DNA of 30,927 nt from Escherichia phage ESSI2_ev129: sequence record NC_049394.1; one strand, given 5' to 3'. The notes below the pieces were generated by a model. That model was not told the origin of the DNA. It made no database searches and was given only the letters and a program-made list of their open reading frames with translations. A program made the translations under genes and the position numbers. Positions 3,755 to 28,550 of this stretch are shown piece after piece; position 1 is the first letter of the stretch; every line of letters starts with the position of its first letter.

Positions 3755-5328
3755 TATGCGAGTCTCACTATGTAGTTAAATGCAATATTCTTAACGGTCG
3801 TTTCTGCGTTGCCCGACGCGGCGACGGTAATGGTGTGACTGTGTGCGCCAATGGCTACGGTATGAGAGTGAGCGCCAATACCTACGGTGTGATTATGTGC
3901 GCCAATGGCTACGGTGTGCGCGTGGTTTCCCGCCGAACTGGTTGCGGCTCGCCCCTGATCGCTACGTGGTACCCCCCAGTCACTACCACCTGATTGCACA
4001 TTCCCGCCATAACCAATGGTGTGCGTATGCGCTCCCGTGGTATTTGTCGTTTTCGTGCCATAGTCAAACGTAGTCGCCGTTTTAGTGCCGTAATCAAAGG
4101 ATGATGTTGGTTTTGTCCCCAAATCCGTACTGGATGCACTGGCGGTGTGGGCATGGGATTTATTGCCATCATCTTCATAGGAGAGAACTGCGCGACCGTC
4201 TGGTTTCCCTTTGATAGTCTGCCCACGCGCATCAGGAATTACGCCCGATGGATACGCGATTGCCAGTAAAGGATATGCAGCCTTATCAAAAGATTGTCCC
4301 TGCATAATTGCCCACCCTGCCGGTGGGATATCTGTTGACCACGGAAGCGGCACACCAACCGGCAGAACATCACTACGACTTAAAACGGCCAGTTCACCCA
4401 GATCCAGGCTTTTTCTTGCTTTTACCTTGTCGTTAACATCAGCAAGGTTTGCATCCTTACGCAAAAAATCACTGCTGGCCTGCTGTTCTCCCAGGCTACC
4501 TTTTGGCCGTAAATCCGTGATGTTGCCATCCACATCAATGCTGGCCACAGCAAACACATAATGCTGAACCCCGTTCTGAACATAATCAGCAAGATTTGCA
4601 GTCACCGTGATTTTGCTCTGCACATTCCAGACACTGGTCAATGTCCCTGTCCAGCACACATCCAGCCAGACTTTTACCGGCTTTGTCGTCACCGTAATAT
4701 TCTGATTCGCAGCCAGTGACGCACGCAATCCAGCCACATAACCCGTGCCTTTCGTGACAAAAAACTGATTGCCAGTTTTGGCTACCAGATAGCCGTTACC
4801 AAAAAACGCCGCCGCACCATAGATATCCATATTTTCCAGGCGCTGGCGCTCATCCATTCCGGCCATACGCGCAGTAAAATCAATCTGCCAGGTTTCAGCG
4901 GGTGTATTAATCCCGGTTTCCGTCTGTGCGCCGTTGTACTCCATCAGAAACGAGCGGGTCAGCACGTTCCCCTGTTGCCCTTCTTTTGTTTTCAGTTTCT
5001 GCTGTGATGGTGCATGGACAATCATTGCCAGCGTACCGCTGGCCTTATTGAGCAGACCGATCCAGTTAAAACTGAAATCACCCACATCTGCGCCCAGCAC
5101 TACGGAATAGACCACCCCGTTTTCATTCACCACACCGGTGCGGGTAACAGCCTGCCGGTGAACAATCTGTGCTGTCGGTGGCAACGCTTCATTGCGGTCA
5201 ACAGGTGTATCCGGGTTTAAATCCGGCACACTGGCAAAAACAAATTCGTCCAGTAGTACCGGTTCACCCGTTGCGCCCTGCTGTGCTTTCCAGTTTTCAA
5301 ACGCCAGCGTGATGGCTGTCTGTGACAT
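3754..5328 (-). CDS. Tail fibre protein with tail-collar domain and C-terminal His-x-His repeat tip
   Basis: 524 aa. Strong Shine-Dalgarno AAGGAGG upstream of ATG 5326-5328. Collar-like segment [33 protein letters not shown]-terminal repeats FDYGTKT x2 and (H-x-H-T-V/I) x5 (..[34 protein letters not shown]..), encoded by three 27-bp DNA repeats at 3841-3921. Confidence 0.8.
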
Positions 5329-17296: not shown

Positions 17297-19072
17297 ATGG
17301 CTAAATACTCTGAAGAATTAAAAGGCGTTGTTCGCGCACTTTATCTGCGCCGCTATACGCCAAAGGAAATCGCATCTGAATTAAATCTGCCGAATGCGCG
17401 GATCGTTTACTACTGGGCGGAGAAATACAGCTGGGCGGATTTGCTCAGTTTTGAAAGCACAGAGGAAGCGATTGAACGCCGTTACCAGCTGCTGGCCAGC
17501 CGCGATAACAAAACAGATCTCGACCTAAAAGAAATGGACATGCTCATTGCTCATGCCACGAAACTGCGTGCGCAGAGTAATAAACACAAAGAGAAAATGG
17601 CCAGCGGTCAGAGTTCCGGGCAAGCAGCTGCGCGGGACAACAATGACGACGAACCGCGCAGCAAACGGAAGTACAGGAAAAACGATATTACCTCGCTGAC
17701 GCAGGAGGACTTTGACGCATGGGCTGAGGAACATCTTTTTGAATATCAGAAACACCTGCGCAATAACATTGGCCAGCTTGTAAGGAACATCCTGAAAAGC
17801 CGCCAGATCGGTGCGACCTGGTATTTTGCGTTTGAAGCGTTTGAAAACGCGGTGATGACCGGCGATCCGCAAATCTTTCTGTCAGCGTCAAAGGCTCAGG
17901 CTGAAGTGTTCCGGTCTTACATCGTGAATATTGCAGAGCAGTATTTCGGTATTACGCTGACCGGTAACCCGATCCGCTTAAGCAACGGCGCAGAACTGCG
18001 TTTTCTCTCCACCAACAAAAACACCGCCCAGTCCTACAGTGGCCACCTGTACTGTGACGAATATTTCTGGGTACCAAACTTTGCAAAACTTAACGAAGTG
18101 GCCAGCGCAATGGCCACGCATGACAAGTGGCGTACCACCTATTTTTCAACTCCATCGGCAAAAACGCACCAGGCGTACCCGTTCTGGACGGGCGATGAGT
18201 GGAAACAGGGCAGTAAAAAACGTGCGGCCATTAAGTTTCCTTCCTTTAACGAAATGCGTGACGGCGGGCGACTCTGCCCGGATGGGCAATGGCGCTACGT
18301 CATTACGATGGAAGATGCCATTGCGGGCGGTTTCAACCTGGCGAATATCGAGAAACTTCGCAACCGCTACAACGACGCCACTTTTAACATGCTCTATATG
18401 TGCGTGTTCGTTGACAGCAAAGATTCCGTTTTCAGCTTTTCCGACCTGGAAGCCTGCGGTGTTGAAATCGACACCTGGCAGGATCACAACCCTGATGCAG
18501 CGCGGCCATTCGGTGACAGGCCAGTCTGGGGCGGCTTTGACCCGGCTCGCAGCGGGGATTTGTCCTGTTTTGTCATCATCGCCCCGCCGATGCTCGCCGT
18601 GGAGAAGTTCCGCGTTCTGAAGGTGATTTACTGGAAAGGCATGAACTTCCGGTACCAGGCAAAACAGATCGAGCAGTTGTTCAAAAAATACAACTTCACT
18701 TATCTGGGTGTGGACGTTACCGGCATTGGCCAGGGTGTTTTTGACAACATTCAGCATTTTGCCATGCGCGTGGCCGTCCCTATTCGTTACGACCTGAACA
18801 CCAAAAATAAGCTGGTACTGAAAGCGGTGGACGTGGTGGAAAGCCAGCGTATTGAGTGGGATAAAAATTTGAAAGAGATCGCGGCCAGCTTTATGTCTGT
18901 GCGCCGAACCACCACACAAAGCGGCAACGCCATGACGTTTGTCGCTGACCGCAGCCAGGATACCGGCCACGCAGAGGCATTCTGGGCGATTACCCACGGT
19001 CTGCATAACGAACCCCTTAACTATGAAAACAAACCTAAATCCCGCTGGGGTGTAAGGAAAGAGGCAGCATGA
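17297..19072 (+). CDS. P: Terminase large (ATPase) subunit, P2 gpP-like
   Basis: 591 aa (P2 gpP is about 590 aa); ATG at 17297; divergent from O; stop overlaps the portal start (ATGA at 19069-19072). Confidence 0.85.
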   Translation: MAKYSEELKGVVRALYLRRYTPKEIASELNLPNARIVYYWAEKYSWADLLSFESTEEAIERRYQLLASRDNKTDLDLKEMDMLIAHATKLRAQSNKHKEKMASGQSSGQAAARDNNDDEPRSKRKYRKNDITSLTQEDFDAWAEEHLFEYQKHLRNNIGQLVRNILKSRQIGATWYFAFEAFENAVMTGDPQIFLSASKAQAEVFRSYIVNIAEQYFGITLTGNPIRLSNGAELRFLSTNKNTAQSYSGHLYCDEYFWVPNFAKLNEVASAMATHDKWRTTYFSTPSAKTHQAYPFWTGDEWKQGSKKRAAIKFPSFNEMRDGGRLCPDGQWRYVITMEDAIAGGFNLANIEKLRNRYNDATFNMLYMCVFVDSKDSVFSFSDLEACGVEIDTWQDHNPDAARPFGDRPVWGGFDPARSGDLSCFVIIAPPMLAVEKFRVLKVIYWKGMNFRYQAKQIEQLFKKYNFTYLGVDVTGIGQGVFDNIQHFAMRVAVPIRYDLNTKNKLVLKAVDVVESQRIEWDKNLKEIAASFMSVRRTTTQSGNAMTFVADRSQDTGHAEAFWAITHGLHNEPLNYENKPKSRWGVRKEAA

Positions 19073-20757: not shown

Positions 20758-22797
20758 CTACAACCACCCCGGCCACAGTTCCTGTAATGGCTCGTTTTGA
20801 GTCTCTTTAAGCCGCCCGTTGCGGTAAATCAGTGCGCCCTGACCAAATTTCAAACCACTCCCCCGCAGGAGAATGGCTATTTCTTCATCAGAACCATCAA
20901 AACCCCGACTGCGTAATTCCAGTTTTAACCGTCTGCGGGTTCCCCCCTCCGTACAGTTATTGACAGAACTCCAAGGGGCGGCGTTGCCGCCAGAAAAACC
21001 CGCCTCCGCTGGCGCTTCGGCCAGTTTCGCTACCTTCTGCCACTTCACCAAGCGCGTACATACCTCGGAATCTGGAACCAATGGAGAATAGACGCCCTGA
21101 ACACGCTGCACGTCCTCTGCGTATTCGTTTCCCTGTTCCGTAATTTCATAGGCCAGGCGAACAACCAGATCACGGCGGGGAACCAGTGCACCGCCCTGCG
21201 CCTGGGTATATGCAGCCCAGTCCCCGACATCAGCAGCGGCCAGAACCGCATCCATTCTGCGATCTGCCAGTACCTGATCCCGCAAACGACGCAGCTCACG
21301 CCAGACAGTTACCGGCGCACCACCAATCTGTTGAAACTGGCGAATACGCCAGCGTGAAGCCCACGCGGAAACGGACTTAGCCATATCACGCAGATTTTCG
21401 CCGGTTTCTTCGTCCTGCTCACCATCCAGCGCAAAACCATCAATATTTTTTGAAATGTATTTCGCGATGTAGCCCGTGGCCGAACCTTTGGCGGGATCGA
21501 TAGCTTCAACATGAAAACGCGCCTTCAGCGCCTTTTCAGATTGAAGTTCTTCAGAATCGGTAATTCTGGCGTGATAACAAAGAATATCGCGTACCGTGTC
21601 CACGTCCTGCGGACGCATAAAAAGCAACATATGCCAGTGCGGTGTCCCGTCATGGTGAGGCTCAACAACCCGAAACCCAAATACATGGATACCAGCACGC
21701 GAGATCGCTGCACGCGCTTTTGCCCATACGCCGCATAAATAGCGCTGGGTATCCTGCGGCGTACTTCCATCCCATTGCGATACAAAGCCACCTTTGCTGT
21801 GTACCGCATGGAAACGTGATGGTGCGGTGATGGTGTAAAACTCACCGGCCAGCCCTTCTTCATTTGCCATATCTTCAAACCCTCGCATTCTTACCATTAG
21901 CTCACAGCGACGGATCGCCGGATTTGCAACGCTGCGGTGTACCATGCTGTCCAGTGCAATGCGCAGCCCTTCATCATTCAGCAGATCAAACTTTTTAAAG
22001 AACTCCAGATTCCGCTTTTTCTGGTCTATCCATTCACCCAGTGTTTTGCGGGATACATAAGCGCTGGCCGCTTTTTGCACCTGCCCCACCGCGATGGCCA
22101 TGTGTTCGCGCTGCGTATCACGCGCACGTTTAAGACGCAGGTACCACCATTCCGGCGCCATCATGCGCAGTATCCCGGATTCCGCCTTACGCATTTCCAG
22201 TTGGCCTTCATTGGCCTCATGTTCAGCCCAGTACGGCGGCTGGTTATTCAGCATCAGGCAACATGCACAAAGATGTCGGTATGATTCCAGGGTGCGGCGA
22301 TACAGCTCTCTGGCGTCGTCAGTGCCGGAATCAAACTGTTCGGTGAAGTCATAAAGTGACTGGGAAATCCAGCCAGATACCTGGCCAGCCAGTTTTTTAA
22401 GATCAGGACGGTCTAGTGACGGCAAGCGCTCCAGCGACTTACCAAAAGGAAGATCAGCAGCATCAGCGGCCAGCGAGTAACGCGCAGCCACTTTTCGCAG
22501 ACGTGGCAATACACTCCCGCCGATGGTCTGGCGCAGGAATGTATTGGCACGGCGACGCCCGTCACGACCAGCAAAAAGCTTTTCATAGCGACGGCCAAAA
22601 TACCCGGCTAACCAGTCGGGTATCTCATGCAGGTACCGGGATCGCCATTCATAATCCTGCGGGTTTACAGCCCACAGGCGGCGTTCTGTGATTGTCGCGT
22701 CTGCCGGTGTACCAGGCGCAAAGGTTTCACGCCGCCAGGCATCGACGGCGTGATGTTGCCCCAGCTCTTGATGAAGGAAATCAGTATGCTCAGGCAT
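20758..22797 (-). CDS. A: Replication initiation protein (P2 gpA-like rolling-circle initiator/nickase)
   Basis: 679 aa; contains the tyrosine active-site-like segment SATGYIAKYISKNIDG characteristic of the gpA family; ATG 22795-22797 overlaps the upstream methyltransferase stop by 8 nt. Confidence 0.85.
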   Translation of the reverse strand: MPEHTDFLHQELGQHHAVDAWRRETFAPGTPADATITERRLWAVNPQDYEWRSRYLHEIPDWLAGYFGRRYEKLFAGRDGRRRANTFLRQTIGGSVLPRLRKVAARYSLAADAADLPFGKSLERLPSLDRPDLKKLAGQVSGWISQSLYDFTEQFDSGTDDARELYRRTLESYRHLCACCLMLNNQPPYWAEHEANEGQLEMRKAESGILRMMAPEWWYLRLKRARDTQREHMAIAVGQVQKAASAYVSRKTLGEWIDQKKRNLEFFKKFDLLNDEGLRIALDSMVHRSVANPAIRRCELMVRMRGFEDMANEEGLAGEFYTITAPSRFHAVHSKGGFVSQWDGSTPQDTQRYLCGVWAKARAAISRAGIHVFGFRVVEPHHDGTPHWHMLLFMRPQDVDTVRDILCYHARITDSEELQSEKALKARFHVEAIDPAKGSATGYIAKYISKNIDGFALDGEQDEETGENLRDMAKSVSAWASRWRIRQFQQIGGAPVTVWRELRRLRDQVLADRRMDAVLAAADVGDWAAYTQAQGGALVPRRDLVVRLAYEITEQGNEYAEDVQRVQGVYSPLVPDSEVCTRLVKWQKVAKLAEAPAEAGFSGGNAAPWSSVNNCTEGGTRRRLKLELRSRGFDGSDEEIAILLRGSGLKFGQGALIYRNGRLKETQNEPLQELWPGWL

Positions 22798-23800
22798 ACT
22801 GTCCCCCCATCAAGTAGGCTTTTATAAAAGCTGTCGCAGCTTCTGCATTCAGGGCGTTGCCATAGGTTCTAATTCGTCCCACTCTGGAGGAAGCCCCATT
22901 AACCAGAGGCTTAAGGCCGGATTTAATTGGCCTCCACTTTCCATCTCTGCACAGAAGCCAGTCAGCATCTTTCCAGAAGCCGTTAACCGCACCGGCCCCG
23001 CTATCTGAGCAACCACATCCAGCCTGTCTATCGACAGCTTGCCATTGCGAATCCTCCCCCCAGAATATCCGCCCTTGTGATCGCTCGCTGTTGGAGTCGG
23101 CCAGCCCGCTAACCTCGCCGCGCCGCCAAGCGTTGTACCTCGCTTCGGATGGTTTGCTGCCGCCCCCTCTCCTGAAATTTGATTGTTGTCCTGTGTAGTT
23201 GGAGTTGGCCACCCTGCAAGTTGAACCGCTGTTTGCAAGTTCAATCCCCCTTGACGGCCTGCATTGCTGGGATGTTTCCATGCATTCGCTGTCGGTGTTG
23301 GCCACCCAGTAAGTTCTGTCTCTGATATTCGGCGCACCGACGCTCGCAGCCGGAAACGCACACGCCCCGAAGGCATAGCCCATTGCTTCCATGTCAGCTT
23401 GTACAAGGTCGATCCAGTCGTTTGCGTGAGCACTCGCAGATTGCTCGCCAAAGATAACGAGAGGGCGGCGCTGCCCGACCAGCCAATGCATGGCGGGCCA
23501 TAAGTGCCGCTCATCAGCAAACCCTTTTCCTTTGCCTGCCGCGCTGAAAGGTTGGCATGGACATGATCCCGACCAGACTGGTTTATCTTCTGGCCATCCA
23601 GCACGGCGCAGGGCATATGACCAAACTCCAATCCCTGCAAAGAAATGGACTTGAGTGAATCCTCGCAAGTCGTCTGGATGGACATCTTCAATACTCCTTT
23701 CATCAACTTCACCGGCCATAATGCGACCGGCAGAAATATGCGTACGCAGTCGCTCTGCCGCAAACGGATCAATTTCGTTGTAATATGCGGAAGGTTTCAT
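22790..23800 (-). CDS. DNA (cytosine-5) methyltransferase, with a two-frame anomaly in its central region
   Basis: This frame carries motif I (FFAGIGVW), motif IV (GSCPCQPFSAAGKG), motifs VII-VIII (EAMGYAFG..GAPNIRDRTYWVA) and a motif-X-like C-terminus (YGNALNAEAATAFIKAYL). ATGA overlap with the Dam stop. A second same-strand frame (22849..23772) holds a triplicated LAGWPTPT module; see findings. Confidence 0.7.
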   Translation of the reverse strand: MKPSAYYNEIDPFAAERLRTHISAGRIMAGEVDERSIEDVHPDDLRGFTQVHFFAGIGVWSYALRRAGWPEDKPVWSGSCPCQPFSAAGKGKGFADERHLWPAMHWLVGQRRPLVIFGEQSASAHANDWIDLVQADMEAMGYAFGACAFPAASVGAPNIRDRTYWVANTDSECMETSQQCRPSRGIELANSGSTCRVANSNYTGQQSNFRRGGGSKPSEARYNAWRRGEVSGLADSNSERSQGRIFWGEDSQWQAVDRQAGCGCSDSGAGAVNGFWKDADWLLCRDGKWRPIKSGLKPLVNGASSRVGRIRTYGNALNAEAATAFIKAYLMGGQYA

Positions 23801-24648
23801 GCGCTGACCTCAACCGGAACAGGCCATTTAAGAATCAACTCTGCCGCCATTTTCGGGCTTGCAGCTGCCGCACCAACGCTACGCGGTGCATTCACCTGAA
23901 CAGCGTCAAACCCTGCATACAGGTAATGCACCATTTCCAAATCGCTGTTTGACGCGACCACCTTAATCCCACGTTCTGCCAGGCGTCGTAGCTTACGCGC
24001 CAACCGACCCTGATCCAGGTGCGAAAAACCGCGCTCATGGTAAGCGGTGAAATTGTCGGTATCAGTCAGATAAGGCGGATCACAGTAAACAACGTCACTC
24101 CCGCCCCGAACCAAATCGAGCGTTTCTGAATAGTGGGCAGTAATGAACGTTGCACGCTTCGCTTTTTCGGCAAAGGCGCGTATTTCATTGGCAGGGAAAT
24201 AAGGCTTCTTGTACTTACCGAACGGGACATTGAACTGACCACGGCGATTATACCGGCACAGGCCATTGAAGCAGTGCCGGTTCAGATACAGGAAACGCGC
24301 AGCATTTTCAATGGATTCAGAACCGGATTTACCGGACAGGTTGAAGGCATCCCGCACTGCGTAATAGAAAACTGCACGGTTTTCTTCATCGCCTAACGAA
24401 CCGGCAGTAAACAGGATCTCCAGCTCATTCAGCAGCGCATCAGTGTGATACGCCATCGCCTTATAAAGATTAACCAGATCAGGATTCACATCTGCGATCA
24501 GATACTCGTCATAATCCGTATTCATCATGACGGCGCAGGAACCTGCGAACGGTTCAACCAGGCGTTTACCTTCTGGAAGGTGCGGACGCAGCTTAGGCAT
24601 AAGGCGGGCTTTGCTGCCCACCCATTTAAGCGGAGTTTTAACGGCCAT
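23797..24648 (-). CDS. dam: DNA adenine (N6) methyltransferase, Dam family
   Basis: 283 aa. N-terminal [19 protein letters not shown] (AdoMet motif) and catalytic VYCDPPYL (DPPY). GGAGG Shine-Dalgarno 6 nt before ATG 24646-24648. Confidence 0.85.
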
Positions 24649-24967
24649 ATTGACCTCCGCCAGCTAACACCTCAGTGACACCGTTTGAAATGATGTATTC
24701 CAGCACTTCAAGCGGCGACAGTGAACAGATGGACAAAACCGCCCAGTTTTCAGTATCAGCGATAATTTCATTTACAGGCAAAACATGGGTGATAACCGCC
24801 GCCCACTCACGCCCGGTGTATTTCCCGTGCTTCCACTCACACAGTGAAAGAACATCACCGGTTTTGTACCCGCGATCGTTTTTTCGCAGTTCGGCCTTTT
24901 TCTGGCCAGCCACTACTGCATCAAGGTATTTCGGCGCAATCTTTATCGTGTGGATTTTGATTGTCAT
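24638..24967 (-). CDS. Small PUA/ASCH-like domain protein (DUF3850-type, tentative)
   Basis: 109 aa, ATGA overlap with the exonuclease stop, 11-nt overlap with the Dam start. Family recalled from N-terminal [40 protein letters not shown]; not verified. Confidence 0.4.
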
Positions 24968-25668
24968 TTTGCACCGCCTTCTGCAATAGCAAGGATCACA
25001 CCAAGCGTCAGATTGCAGTCATACAACGCTCTATGTGGTGCACCTTCTCCGGCATCAACCTTAAGCGCCGCCGCTGCATCCACAAGTCGTTTCCAGCGGG
25101 TTTTACGGCGTACAACATCCCATTCACCGTTATAATCTGCGTACAGCTGCATTACGCACTCAGGGGTGCGTATATCCTCATGCTGTTCATAATCCCCACC
25201 AGACTGGCGCAACATACGCGCATCAAATTTTGCGTTATATGCGACCCAGCCCTTACTTGTTAACTCCAATACTTTCGGCAGAATTTCCAACCATGATGGT
25301 GCATTAGCAACCATTTCATCCGTAATACCGTGAATTGCAGTTGCCGCTTCTGGAATAGGTTTCGATGGCTTGACCAGCGTATTAAGCAAAACGTAACCAG
25401 CACAGTCGATGATCGAAATTTCTACAATTTCATCATCAAATCCTAGTCCTGTGGTTTCTGTATCAAGAATGACAAAGCCCTTATCAATCCAGCGCTTTGC
25501 TATCTGCTGTTCAGTTTCCAGACGGTCGGAAAAATACAGAGACTGATCGGTGATCCTCCAACACTGGCGAATCACATCGCGCAACGAAGCCCCTTCTTTA
25601 GCTCTGGCACCAGAAACCACCCCACCCAAAATGGCCGAAAAAAGTTGATTGCGAGCGCTCAATTCCAT
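24964..25668 (-). CDS. 3'-5' exonuclease, DnaQ-like (DEDDh)
   Basis: Track start is a TTG; refined to ATG 25666-25668 (MELSARN...). Exo I motif ILDTETTGL, Exo II-like VAYNAKFD, Exo III HRALYDC. Confidence 0.8.
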
Positions 25669-25913
25669 GCCGCACCGCCTTTGCTGCAAATCACTGCGGC
25701 TTCTTCGCGGATTAACTCAACGATTTCCGCTGCGCTTAAACCTTCACTGGCTGCATGGGTGGCCAGCTTATCCAGACGGGTGGAACACAGATCAGCAGCT
25801 GCGGCTTTACCTTCCTGCGTGGCTTTGGTGAGCATGTCCTGCCACACGGAAAAGGCATACTCAATCCGATATTCGAATTGTTTTCTGGCAAAAATTTCTC
25901 TTTCTTTATTCAT
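25659..25913 (-). CDS. Hypothetical early protein
   Basis: 84 aa, ATG 25911-25913 with AAGGAA Shine-Dalgarno; overlaps the exonuclease start by 10 nt. No motif recognised. Confidence 0.5.
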   Translation of the reverse strand: MNKEREIFARKQFEYRIEYAFSVWQDMLTKATQEGKAAAADLCSTRLDKLATHAASEGLSAAEIVELIREEAAVICSKGGAAWN

Positions 25914-27036: not shown

Positions 27037-27540
27037 TCACATCAGGCCGGTGGCGTTGGTTGTGACCAGATCCACCGCAGCGGCCAGAACTGGCGCAGAG
27101 TGAATACGGCTTTCAACGGTATAAGCCAGCACGGATAAGCTACGGATTGCATCGCGGGCACGATCCAGAATTTGAGTACGGCGGGCGGCGGTCATATGGC
27201 CAGTTGATACGGCTTCCCCAGCAATCGCGCCCACACACGCAGTAGCGCTCAACGCGCAAAATTGCATGTTGGCTTCAGTGGCGTTATTGACTGGAACGGA
27301 GGGCAAGCAGTTAATCTGCCCCAGCATCCCATCAAGTAAACGAGCATCTTCCGTGTAATCGGTGATAGCCAGCAGCTCGTCACAGGTCAGGCGGTGCGGT
27401 TGAACCGGGTTCAACTTATTGCGCAGGATCTGCGGACGCATACCAACGGCAGCGGCCACATCTTCCAGATTGTGCGACAGCGCAAACGCTCGGCAAGCTG
27501 CATCAAAATGTGCATGTTTGGAAGTTTGGTAATCAAACAT
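27037..27540 (-). CDS. cII: Phage regulatory protein CII (186-type lysogeny establishment factor)
   Basis: Track start is a GTG; refined to ATG 27538-27540. N-terminus MFDYQTSKHAHFDAACRAFALSHN..LRNKLNPVQPHRLTCDELLAITDYTED parallels 186 CII; 167 aa. Confidence 0.75.
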   Translation of the reverse strand: MFDYQTSKHAHFDAACRAFALSHNLEDVAAAVGMRPQILRNKLNPVQPHRLTCDELLAITDYTEDARLLDGMLGQINCLPSVPVNNATEANMQFCALSATACVGAIAGEAVSTGHMTAARRTQILDRARDAIRSLSVLAYTVESRIHSAPVLAAAVDLVTTNATGLM

Positions 27541-27572
27541 AGTCAGCACCCTCTCTGCGTTTCAAAATCGAA

Positions 27573-27794
27573 TCAGTTAAGTACGATGTTGCAACCCGCG
27601 AGGGCGTCTATGGTCAGAGCCGCGATATTGATCATGACTTTTTCACGCCCCATATCTTTGCGAAGGCGGTGACGAGGCAAGCGGCCATCTTTCAACATCG
27701 CTTCAACGGTATCTTCTGGTAAACCAGTGAGTTCGATGTATTTCTCTTTTGAGATAGAAGGGACGGGTAGATTGATTGAAATGTTAGTGGTCAT
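27573..27794 (-). CDS. Apl/Cox-family excisionase-repressor (tentative)
   Basis: 73 aa, first gene of the leftward early operon, immediately upstream of cII and divergent from cI, as apl in 186 / cox in P2. GAGGAA Shine-Dalgarno. Confidence 0.55.
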   Translation of the reverse strand: MTTNISINLPVPSISKEKYIELTGLPEDTVEAMLKDGRLPRHRLRKDMGREKVMINIAALTIDALAGCNIVLN

Positions 27795-27929
27795 AGTGCA
27801 AGATTCCTCGTTTGGAAGTTAACCGTGGCTAGCGGTGTTAAAAGGTGAACAACCTGTTTTGGAATGTTCGCCTGCAAAATAACTTTCCAAATGCGAAGTG
27901 TCAACCAATAACTTTCCCAAGGCGGAATT
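27795..27929. promoter_or_regulatory. Immunity switch region between apl and cI, with candidate operator repeats
   Basis: 135-bp gap between divergent apl/cox-like and cI starts. Four copies of a 9-11-bp motif: TTGGAAGTT (27812-27820), TTGGAATGTT (27859-27868) and, inverted, AACTTTCCAA (27881-27890) and AACTTTCCCAA (27910-27920). Confidence 0.5.
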
Positions 27930-28550
27930 ATGGATCTCAAAAACGGAGGCCAGGCAGTTATAACCAGGCTCCTTGAAGCTTATGGATTTAAGACAAGGCA
28001 GGCTTTATGCGACCAATTGAAAGTATCAACAAGCACCATGGGAACGAGATGGATGCGTGATGTATTCCCAGCTGACTGGGTTATACAGTGCACAATCGAA
28101 ACTGGTGCATCAGTAGAATGGCTATCGTTCGGAACAGGCGAGAAATTTCCCAACGGAACCAGCAAAAACGCAAATGAGAATGAAGATTCCGCAAATGAGA
28201 ACTTGTTAGGTGATGTTGTTTCTGTTACCCGAAAAAAGGTAATAGATGGAAATTTATACGATTCTAATTTTTACATGCTCGACAAAGCCATGCTCCCATC
28301 CCACCTCAGCAAACCCATTATTATTGTGGATGATGATGTCAGCTACTTAGCCGAGCAGAAAAATGATGAATTAACAGACGGTACATGGCTTGTTGAAATT
28401 GAAGGGCAAGTGAGCATAAAAGAGCTAATACGCATTCCAGTAGGCAGGGTTCGTGTAACCTCAGTGCCTGGTAGCGCTAGTTTTGAGTGCGGTATTGATG
28501 ACTTAAAACCTATCGCAAAATGCCACTACTACCTGCTGACAGATGTTTGA
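27930..28550 (+). CDS. cI: CI-type immunity repressor (186 CI-like; no LexA-like autocleavage domain evident)
   Basis: 206 aa; N-terminal helix-turn-helix-like region (..QALCDQLKVSTSTMGTRWMRDVFPADWVIQ..); no Ala-Gly / Ser-Lys S24 peptidase motifs recognised; upstream of int on the same strand. Confidence 0.7.
   Translation: MDLKNGGQAVITRLLEAYGFKTRQALCDQLKVSTSTMGTRWMRDVFPADWVIQCTIETGASVEWLSFGTGEKFPNGTSKNANENEDSANENLLGDVVSVTRKKVIDGNLYDSNFYMLDKAMLPSHLSKPIIIVDDDVSYLAEQKNDELTDGTWLVEIEGQVSIKELIRIPVGRVRVTSVPGSASFECGIDDLKPIAKCHYYLLTDV

Follow-up and report, generated by a model that had tools for sequence, protein, structure and literature searches.

The window analysed here is the whole 30,927-nt genome of Escherichia phage ESSI2_ev129 (NC_049394.1), a 186-like phage of the P2 group, and our subject is the C5-cytosine methyltransferase (C5-MTase) gene on its minus strand, which lies between the gene for a Dam-family adenine methyltransferase and that for the replication initiator gpA (Table 1). 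Both PGAP and the source record annotate a single protein in this gene, 100% identical to the one named 'dcm' in ESSI2_ev129. We found a second long open reading frame (ORF) wholly inside it and refer to the annotated frame (frame A) as alpha and to the embedded one (frame B, +1) as beta. From stop to stop the beta frame covers 22849-23772 (307 codons, from a TTG). No protein in the collection that we searched is identical to beta, the best match having 76% identity (alpha was present at 100%), and PHROGs has families for both frames, phrog_363 for A and phrog_1008 and phrog_31772 for B.

The arrangement was followed through 164 related loci, namely 84 viral loci found via beta and 80 loci, from 80 bacterial species, retrieved via alpha. 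Beta lay inside alpha in the +1 frame at all 164, including two with a stop in the alpha linker; both frames were open in 162 and the third frame in none. Among the loci found via beta, alpha was open end to end in 83 of 84 and the third frame never. The loci retrieved via alpha provide the less biased test, and there beta was open in 80 of 80, over 225 to 384 codons (median 312), the third-frame median being 49 codons. Beta and alpha were co-inherited throughout, in hosts across the Alpha-, Beta- and Gammaproteobacteria. The only in-frame stops in alpha were those of Consotaella salsifontis (L163) and of an IMG/VR contig (L034); in both, the stop falls in the neutral linker, the conserved C-terminus of alpha resumes in frame past it and beta is intact. 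These two could be pseudogenes, sequencing errors or tolerated breaks.

Variability at each codon position, taken from 165 genes aligned by their beta codons, changed along the gene. Over beta residues 1-43 it was highest at the alpha third codon position (0.27-0.37 versus ~0.05-0.1), over residues 44-123 it was low at all three positions, and over residues 124-223 it was highest at the beta third position (0.43-0.57), becoming low again at the end. We then estimated the ratio of nonsynonymous to synonymous divergence (dN/dS) by an OLGenie-style method, with bootstrapping over codons and the third frame as control, in regions R1 (beta residues 1-43), R2 (44-123), R3 (124-223) and R4 (224-275). 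For beta the values were 0.80 (0.44-1.59), 0.36 (0.19-0.61), 0.28 (0.22-0.37) and 0.34 (0.22-0.58) from R1 to R4, and for alpha 0.07, 0.25, 0.94 (0.75-1.19) and 0.64, with 1.07 to 1.74 for the control frame. The alpha-synonymous divergence fell from 0.61 to 0.17 at the point where beta becomes conserved. Beta is under purifying selection across ~230 residues, with a dN/dS of ~0.3. Frame maintenance was assessed with synonymous-resampling simulations on 114 non-redundant loci, in which the alpha linker was open in 113 of 114 against 5% expected, and region R2 of beta in 114 of 114 against 18% expected. These results indicated that both frames are read through, with selection on amino-acid sequence acting at different places in the two.

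The ATG of beta is formed from the codons for Asp39 and Val40 of alpha (GAT GTC), and its AAAGGAG-N8-ATG is the best Shine-Dalgarno arrangement in the whole gene chain. An ATG lay no more than 8 codons from the aligned beta start in all of 112 non-redundant loci (112/112), and in ~80% of them it was formed from the conserved Glu-Asp-Val of alpha, with a GGAG 8 nt upstream supplied by Arg-Ser. Codon choice in alpha is skewed at these sites: the Asp codon at the beta start is GAT in 93 of 101 loci, compared with 41% elsewhere, while at the Shine-Dalgarno site the Arg codon is AGG in 59% of loci (9% overall) and the Ser codon AGY in 82% (47% overall). A selected ATG and GGAG points to independent initiation of beta and argues against frameshifting. 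Both frames are thus conserved, open and under frame-specific purifying selection, and the beta start signal is itself selected.

Alpha carries the catalytic motifs of a C5-MTase. Motif I (FFAGIGVW, residues 53-60), motif IV (SCPCQPFS, residues 79-86), motif VI (FGEQS, with the Glu kept and Gln-Ser in place of Asn-Val) and motif VIII (IRDRTYWV, RxR) are invariant in homologues and align to FAGLGG, GFPCQAFS, MENV and KRERIYMI of M.HhaI, respectively. Motif X (YGNAL, residues 313-317, with G314, N315 and A316 invariant) lies in a predicted helix of residues 304-335. Between motifs VIII and X, neither a structured variable region (the target-recognition domain) nor a motif IX was found, the Pfam and hhalign alignments both ending after motif VIII; in hhalign, the alpha profile covered motifs I and IV-VIII of M.HhaI and then stopped. 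The AF2 model of alpha had a predicted local distance difference test score (pLDDT) of ~90 over residues 1-170 and ~25 (22-30) over residues 172-273, with a C-terminal helix bearing GNA, and Foldseek placed M.HhaI, M.HaeIII and DNMT2 at the top of its matches (E down to 4e-7). As modelled, alpha has the catalytic fold of a C5-MTase and no folded variable region. The two methyltransferases that a sequence-only reading of this DNA had named, by their PCQ (C5) and DPPY (Dam) motifs, are not degenerate, since a motif check found each motif in an otherwise intact catalytic set.

The motif order of alpha looks permuted, in that YYNEIDPFAAE, which resembles motif II, and SIEDV, which resembles motif III, precede the FFAGIG of motif I (alpha residues 1-40, 23681-23800), and motif I sits only ~25 residues before PCQ. 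Two further hints of permutation are a strand-helix-strand that AF2 places at residues 5-33, ahead of the motif I strand, and a 35-residue gap that hhalign requires at the position of motifs II-III in M.HhaI. BLASTP of the alpha N-terminus against M.HhaI gave a chance match only, with no confirmation of motifs II and III before motif I.

Beta appears to hold the sequence features that alpha is without. Its repeat region contains three GWPTPT modules, and related genes have from 1 to 6 WPTP modules; elsewhere beta contains the segment STLYKLTWKQWAMPSGRVRFRLRAS, the peptide LAGWPTPTASDHK and the C-terminus GGQLNPALSLWLMGLPPEWD. When the beta profile was aligned with M.HhaI in hhalign, the sole pairing was that of the beta C-terminus QLNPALSLWLMGLPPEW (residues 253-271) with residues 273-291 of M.HhaI, which is motif IX (E = 0.45). 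The stop codon of beta lies right on the YGNA motif of alpha. Because the only conserved variable-region sequence is in beta, and that of alpha is disordered and neutral, we infer that target recognition resides in beta. The sequence-only reading had counted a single C5-MTase gene here; it stands for the catalytic part, motifs I-VIII and X of alpha, and has to be amended for the rest, as an embedded second gene appears to hold target recognition and motif IX.

Searches with beta showed how widely the arrangement is spread. A word-indexed search returned more than 5,700 proteins, with no Pfam domain on any of the 120 matches listed, and an exhaustive search returned 11,301 cluster representatives at E <= 1e-3 (1,640 at E <= 1e-30), many of the matches starting at the protein's first residues; clustered at 50% identity, beta-like sequences form at least 11,000 clusters. 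By tblastn, beta was matched in about 220 phage records. Both frames were also found in Salmonella phages SI7 and 65FD, a Klebsiella element and Xanthomonas phage PhiXhv-28 (in its authors' annotation, each of the two ORFs is a methyltransferase). In N15 gene 58, RcSalem gp22, K1G ORF30/31 (both annotated) and Seifer, beta occupies the +1 frame relative to the gene annotated as a methyltransferase. In epsilon15 a frame-B match lies within the annotated methyltransferase gene, the relative frame being established only for the other phages named. The orphan methyltransferases of phrog_363 phages (N15 gene 58, epsilon15, K1G ORF31, SI7 and gp22 of Rhodobacter phage RcSalem) are of the same protein family as alpha, and the embedded +1 ORF (phrog_1008) is confirmed in SI7, N15, RcSalem and K1G, as in ESSI2_ev129. 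Nothing essential sets ESSI2_ev129 apart from these enzymes; its WPTP modules number three, and its variable region does not resemble that of the nearest relatives. In the literature searched on overlapping or dual-coding phage methyltransferases, N15 gene 58 and epsilon15, no report describes the N15/epsilon15/P2-like family as two-subunit. The main interest of the locus is the unannotated embedded beta gene, and ESSI2_ev129 would seem to exemplify a very large family with the same construction.

A tblastn search of plasmids with beta, seeking a copy beside a restriction enzyme, returned phage-like elements only. Plasmids of Citrobacter amalonaticus (H121/H122) carry partial matches to beta residues 12-133, with no annotated gene, and Dunaliella viridis virus SI2 (locus L169, 1398-1802) has a 135-aa 'cytosine methylase' coding sequence of which the +1 frame matches the beta C-terminus only. 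These copies may be what remains of the cassette, or minimal forms of it.

The closest published parallel in gene layout is M.EcoHK31I, the YGGCCR-specific C5-methyltransferase of an E. coli restriction-modification system. Two reports describe an alpha chain with motifs I-VIII plus motif X and a beta chain with motif IX, both needed for activity, which is abolished by silent removal of the beta start codons (PMC2836561, PMC3404938). As in ESSI2_ev129, the beta ORF of this enzyme lies wholly inside the alpha ORF in another frame, and in both systems the N-terminal part of beta is the least critical. M.EcoHK31I makes two separate polypeptides, both of them required, whereas in ESSI2_ev129 the two chains are presumed; it is one half of a restriction-modification pair, whereas the ESSI2_ev129 enzyme is an orphan phage gene in a replication operon. 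The variable region differs too, as conserved sequence (the WPTP modules) is present only in beta of ESSI2_ev129 while M.EcoHK31I has its predicted target-recognition domain in alpha. Beta is the larger in ESSI2_ev129, with 278 aa against a reported 176 aa in M.EcoHK31I, the original study of which is said to be that of Lee, Kam and Shaw (1995).

A second naturally split C5-methyltransferase is M.AquI, whose small-chain gene follows the large-chain gene and is not known to be embedded in it. In ESSI2_ev129, by comparison, beta is nested in the alpha gene in the other frame and motif X stays on alpha. The large chain of M.AquI resembles alpha in carrying motifs I-VIII, and it is completed by a small chain that holds motifs IX and X and half of the variable region (PMC3404938).

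From these comparisons we consider it probable that the C5 cassette of ESSI2_ev129 is a heterodimeric C5-methyltransferase of the M.EcoHK31I type, encoded by a dual-coding gene that lies in the early lytic operon and is coupled to gpA. The early lytic transcript would be translated as a coupled gene chain, with ribosomes making alpha from 23800 and, separately, beta from 23685. Alpha would provide the large catalytic domain, its two parts tethered by a disordered linker of ~100 residues that need only stay open, and beta the small domain, made up of a conserved N-terminal segment, the WPTP modules for target recognition and the motif IX-like C-terminus. By analogy with M.EcoHK31I, where assembly has been shown experimentally, the two chains would join into an active C5-methyltransferase that, together with Dam, methylates the replicating phage DNA and so protects it from restriction; both the DNA-recognition role of beta and the anti-restriction role are put forward on these grounds. 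Termination of alpha would finally open a hairpin over the gpA start. A bolder version, which we advance tentatively and would sooner bet against than for, is that recognition is encoded wholly by beta as a variable array of 1-6 WPTP modules, the alpha linker being a passenger that must stay open.

Several points weigh against a heterodimer. Translation of beta and its binding to alpha are deduced from sequence, and M.EcoHK31I was compared by its published description and not by its sequence, a comparison that leaves aside homology beyond the C5-MTase core. Published accounts of that enzyme place its predicted target-recognition domain in alpha and not in beta (PMC2836561, PMC3404938). The resemblance of beta to motif IX is not statistically significant at the hhalign E value given above, and sequence and profile searches with beta against Pfam, NCBIfam and PDB returned no match. 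AF2 found no confident fold for beta (mean pLDDT 32, from a shallow alignment of 58 sequences); a prediction of this kind would look no different for a subunit that needs its partner in order to fold. Finally, a C-terminal segment of alpha ahead of motif X, to which the R4 value of 0.64 belongs, has remained moderately conserved and might replace motif IX and make alpha self-sufficient.

If so, alpha would be a complete orphan C5-methyltransferase and beta a real but functionally separate overprinted protein, such as a regulator, an anti-defence factor or a DNA-binding accessory. All the catalytic motifs of alpha are indeed present, in addition to the segment before motif X, and beta, with no significant similarity to known domains and predicted to be unstructured, has the look typical of overprinted proteins. 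However, the variable region of alpha, where target recognition would be expected, is disordered and neutral; beta is strictly co-inherited at all 164 loci and its end resembles motif IX, precisely what alpha is without; and the only characterised enzyme with such a gene layout requires both chains (PMC2836561). We therefore regard a self-sufficient alpha as unlikely.

A single methyltransferase made by programmed frameshifting, with ribosomes reading motifs I-VIII in alpha, moving +1 into the WPTP modules and motif IX and returning to alpha for motif X, is highly improbable in our judgement. Such an A-B-A reading does give the canonical order of motifs I-VIII, variable region, IX and X, one and the same conserved stretch of DNA encodes the YWVA/GWPTP junction in the two frames, and the beta stop codon falls directly on the YGNA of alpha. 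But beta is selected and open over the ~80 codons upstream of where the shift would occur (dN/dS 0.36; 114/114 versus 18%), it has its own selected Shine-Dalgarno sequence and ATG, and the neutral alpha linker is kept open, which would be pointless if ribosomes left that frame. Moreover, neither junction shows a slippery motif or a zero-frame stop, and two efficient shifts within one gene would be unprecedented. We rejected frameshifting on the selected beta start, the selection upstream of the shift site and the maintained linker. An artificial alpha-beta-alpha hybrid did not extend the PF00145 match past motif VIII, so that this test could not separate frameshifting from two chains.

The last alternative is that the +1 ORF codes for nothing and merely reflects composition or constraint on alpha, the locus being a simple tandem of Dam and a Dcm-like enzyme for anti-restriction. 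It was rejected as the least credible of all, for although long shadow ORFs do arise by chance at 55% G+C (a 286-aa antisense ORF in the terminase gene is one) and PGAP annotates alpha only, this DNA is never open in its third frame, the control-frame dN/dS is at least 1 against ~0.3 for beta, the most variable codon position shifts to the beta third position in mid-gene, synonymous resampling of alpha leaves beta open far less often than is observed, and 11,301 cluster representatives have beta-like sequence.

Table 1 Features of the C5 cassette and of the early region of ESSI2_ev129 (positions in the window)
Feature	Position	Strand	Length	Remarks
C5-cytosine methyltransferase (alpha)	22790-23800	-	336 aa	PF00145, 1.5e-11; phrog_363 end to end
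Beta ORF	22849-23685	-	278 aa	+1 frame, wholly inside the alpha gene; phrog_1008, phrog_31772
Shine-Dalgarno sequence AAAGGAG for beta	23694-23700	-		8 nt ahead of the ATG; from alpha Arg (AGG) and Ser (AGT) codons
Beta repeat region (three GWPTPT modules)	23092-23304	-	beta aa 128-198	Candidate target-recognition part
Beta C-terminal QLNPALSLWLMGLPPEWDE	22873-22929	-		Resembles C5-MTase motif IX; near-invariant columns
Alpha linker	22982-23287	-	alpha aa 172-273	Predicted disordered; neutral amino-acid evolution; frame kept open
Hairpin CAGTATGC-CTGA-GCATACTG	22782-22801	-	8-bp stem	Candidate translational-coupling element
gpA replication initiator endonuclease	20758-22797	-	679 aa	PF05840 (Phage_GPA), 1.2e-104
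Dam-family N6-adenine DNA methyltransferase	23797-24648	-	283 aa	PF02086, 4.9e-67; TIGR00571, 4.1e-81
DUF3850/ASCH (PUA-like) protein	24638-24967	-	109 aa	PF12961, 6.9e-23; PF04266, 3e-05; phrog_986
DEDDh 3'-5' exonuclease (RNase_T)	24964-25668	-	234 aa	PF00929, 3.3e-20, 73.7 bits (cutoff 24)
DUF2732 protein	25659-25913	-		PF10809, 6.2e-11
CII-like gene	27037-27549	-
apl-like gene	27573-27794	-
Sigma-70-like promoter TTGACA-17-TATTTT	27904-27876	-		10/12 match; candidate early lytic promoter
CI-like repressor	27930-28550	+

The cassette belongs to the distal early lytic operon of a 186-like phage, the placement of the genome resting on its gene content (an Ogr-type zinc finger, portal, terminase, gpA, a CII-like protein and a CI-like repressor). 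The sequence-only reading had linked exonuclease, ASCH-like protein, Dam, C5-MTase and gpA on the minus strand by start/stop overlaps of 4, 11, 4 and 8 nt, and the coordinates and domain calls agree with it. Its proposal of one tightly coupled early operon also held: every junction overlaps, no convincing internal promoter or terminator was found between the genes of the chain, the sole strong sigma-70-like site is the one upstream at 27904-27876, and a hairpin at the gpA start recurs with other sequence in two relatives. That site sits upstream of the apl-like and CII-like ORFs, in the gene order of a 186-like prophage. The stretch 27037-28550 looks like a 186-type switch region, with the CI-like repressor facing the apl-like and CII-like genes. 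The chain is one gene longer upstream, as DUF2732 overlaps the exonuclease ATG by 10 nt, an overlap that is annotated in a related prophage.

In the hairpin, the gpA ATG lies within the stem and the alpha TGA stop spans the loop and the 3' stem. An equivalent hairpin of other sequence is present in SI7 (L001, ~4800-4850) and in the Klebsiella element (L002, ~3850-3900), the predicted energies in 55-56-nt windows being -18.5 kcal/mol for ESSI2_ev129, -23.6 kcal/mol for SI7 and -19.2 kcal/mol for the Klebsiella element. That the stem sequences differ among the three suggests a conserved structure for translational coupling.

The remaining genes of the chain were assigned by domain and motif. The exonuclease likely starts at the ATG at 25668 rather than at the TTG at 25689 of the mechanical ORF; its homologue in E. 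coli EC101 is annotated at 705 nt, and its translation shows DTETTG, YNAKFD and HRALYD, with the acidic and His residues of Exo I-III. The DUF3850/ASCH protein scored 81.1 bits for PF12961 (cutoff 22.9) and 25.1 bits for PF04266 (cutoff 21.2), and a literature search on DUF3850 gave no lead to function; a role for it as a reader of modified bases is pure speculation. Dam has its motifs complete (KWVGSK, EPFAGS, NGLCRYN..FNVPFG and CDPPYL, the last being DPPY) and scored 226.8 bits for PF02086 (cutoff 22) and 272.6 for TIGR00571 (cutoff 114.85), falling under the E. coli Dam equivalog cutoff at 262.9 versus 441. Elsewhere in the window, the 286-codon antisense ORF at 18146-19006 (-), inside the gene for the 591-aa terminase at 17297-19072 (+), is probably a chance shadow ORF.

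Comparison with relatives showed where the cassette came to lie. The block of exonuclease, DUF3850 and Dam is 94.8% identical in nucleotides to E. coli prophages and is a standard part of E. coli 186-like prophages, and the early operon of such prophages (CI/apl/cII/fil ... DUF2732/exonuclease/DUF3850/Dam/gpA) has the order and overlaps seen in ESSI2_ev129. It differs in that Dam abuts gpA, whereas ESSI2_ev129 has the ~1-kb alpha/beta cassette between them; in one E. coli prophage relative, Dam is followed directly by gpA with no C5 gene between, which argues that the C5 cassette is a ~1-kb insertion between Dam and gpA. Salmonella phage SI7 and the Klebsiella element already have annotated Dam and C5 genes ahead of gpA, the C5 gene overlapping gpA by 8 nt there too, and the nucleotide similarity to SI7 is confined to the first half of the C5 gene, ending past motif VIII. 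The sister phages ESSI2_ev040 and ev015 match (89.7%) only over the exonuclease end, DUF3850 and Dam, without the C5 alpha/beta cassette there. Judged from these gene arrangements, the pairing of Dam with a C5 enzyme is not unusual for 186/P2-like phages. Since the methyltransferase genes belong to the early lytic operon, where they come downstream of apl/cII and the CI-like repressor lies opposite, methylation of replicating phage DNA would be their likelier output, and the new methylation pattern in the lysogen that the sequence-only reading had expected seems unlikely.

By these findings, a very common family of phage methyltransferases would be annotated with one whole subunit left out. 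Codon-optimising or recoding alpha would destroy beta, and the enzyme might then wrongly be judged dead. As a natural example of same-strand dual coding over a long stretch (837 nt) in a double-stranded DNA phage, the gene is unusually clean, with selection passing from one frame to the other along its length; this makes it useful for trying out methods that detect overlapping genes and for work on how one sequence serves two proteins. For the phage, the heterodimer would refine the idea of an anti-restriction module and predicts doubly methylated progeny DNA, with Dam and a two-subunit C5 enzyme expressed together with the replication initiator and the lysogen methylome unchanged. Should recognition reside wholly in beta, the evolution of specificity, and perhaps of multi-specificity, would proceed through modules gained or lost in one frame as the other frame drifts. 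In that case recoded or codon-optimised alpha genes would yield inactive enzyme for thousands of phage proteins now annotated as 'Dcm-like', and the textbook account of M.EcoHK31I, which places the target-recognition domain in alpha, might have to be revised likewise.

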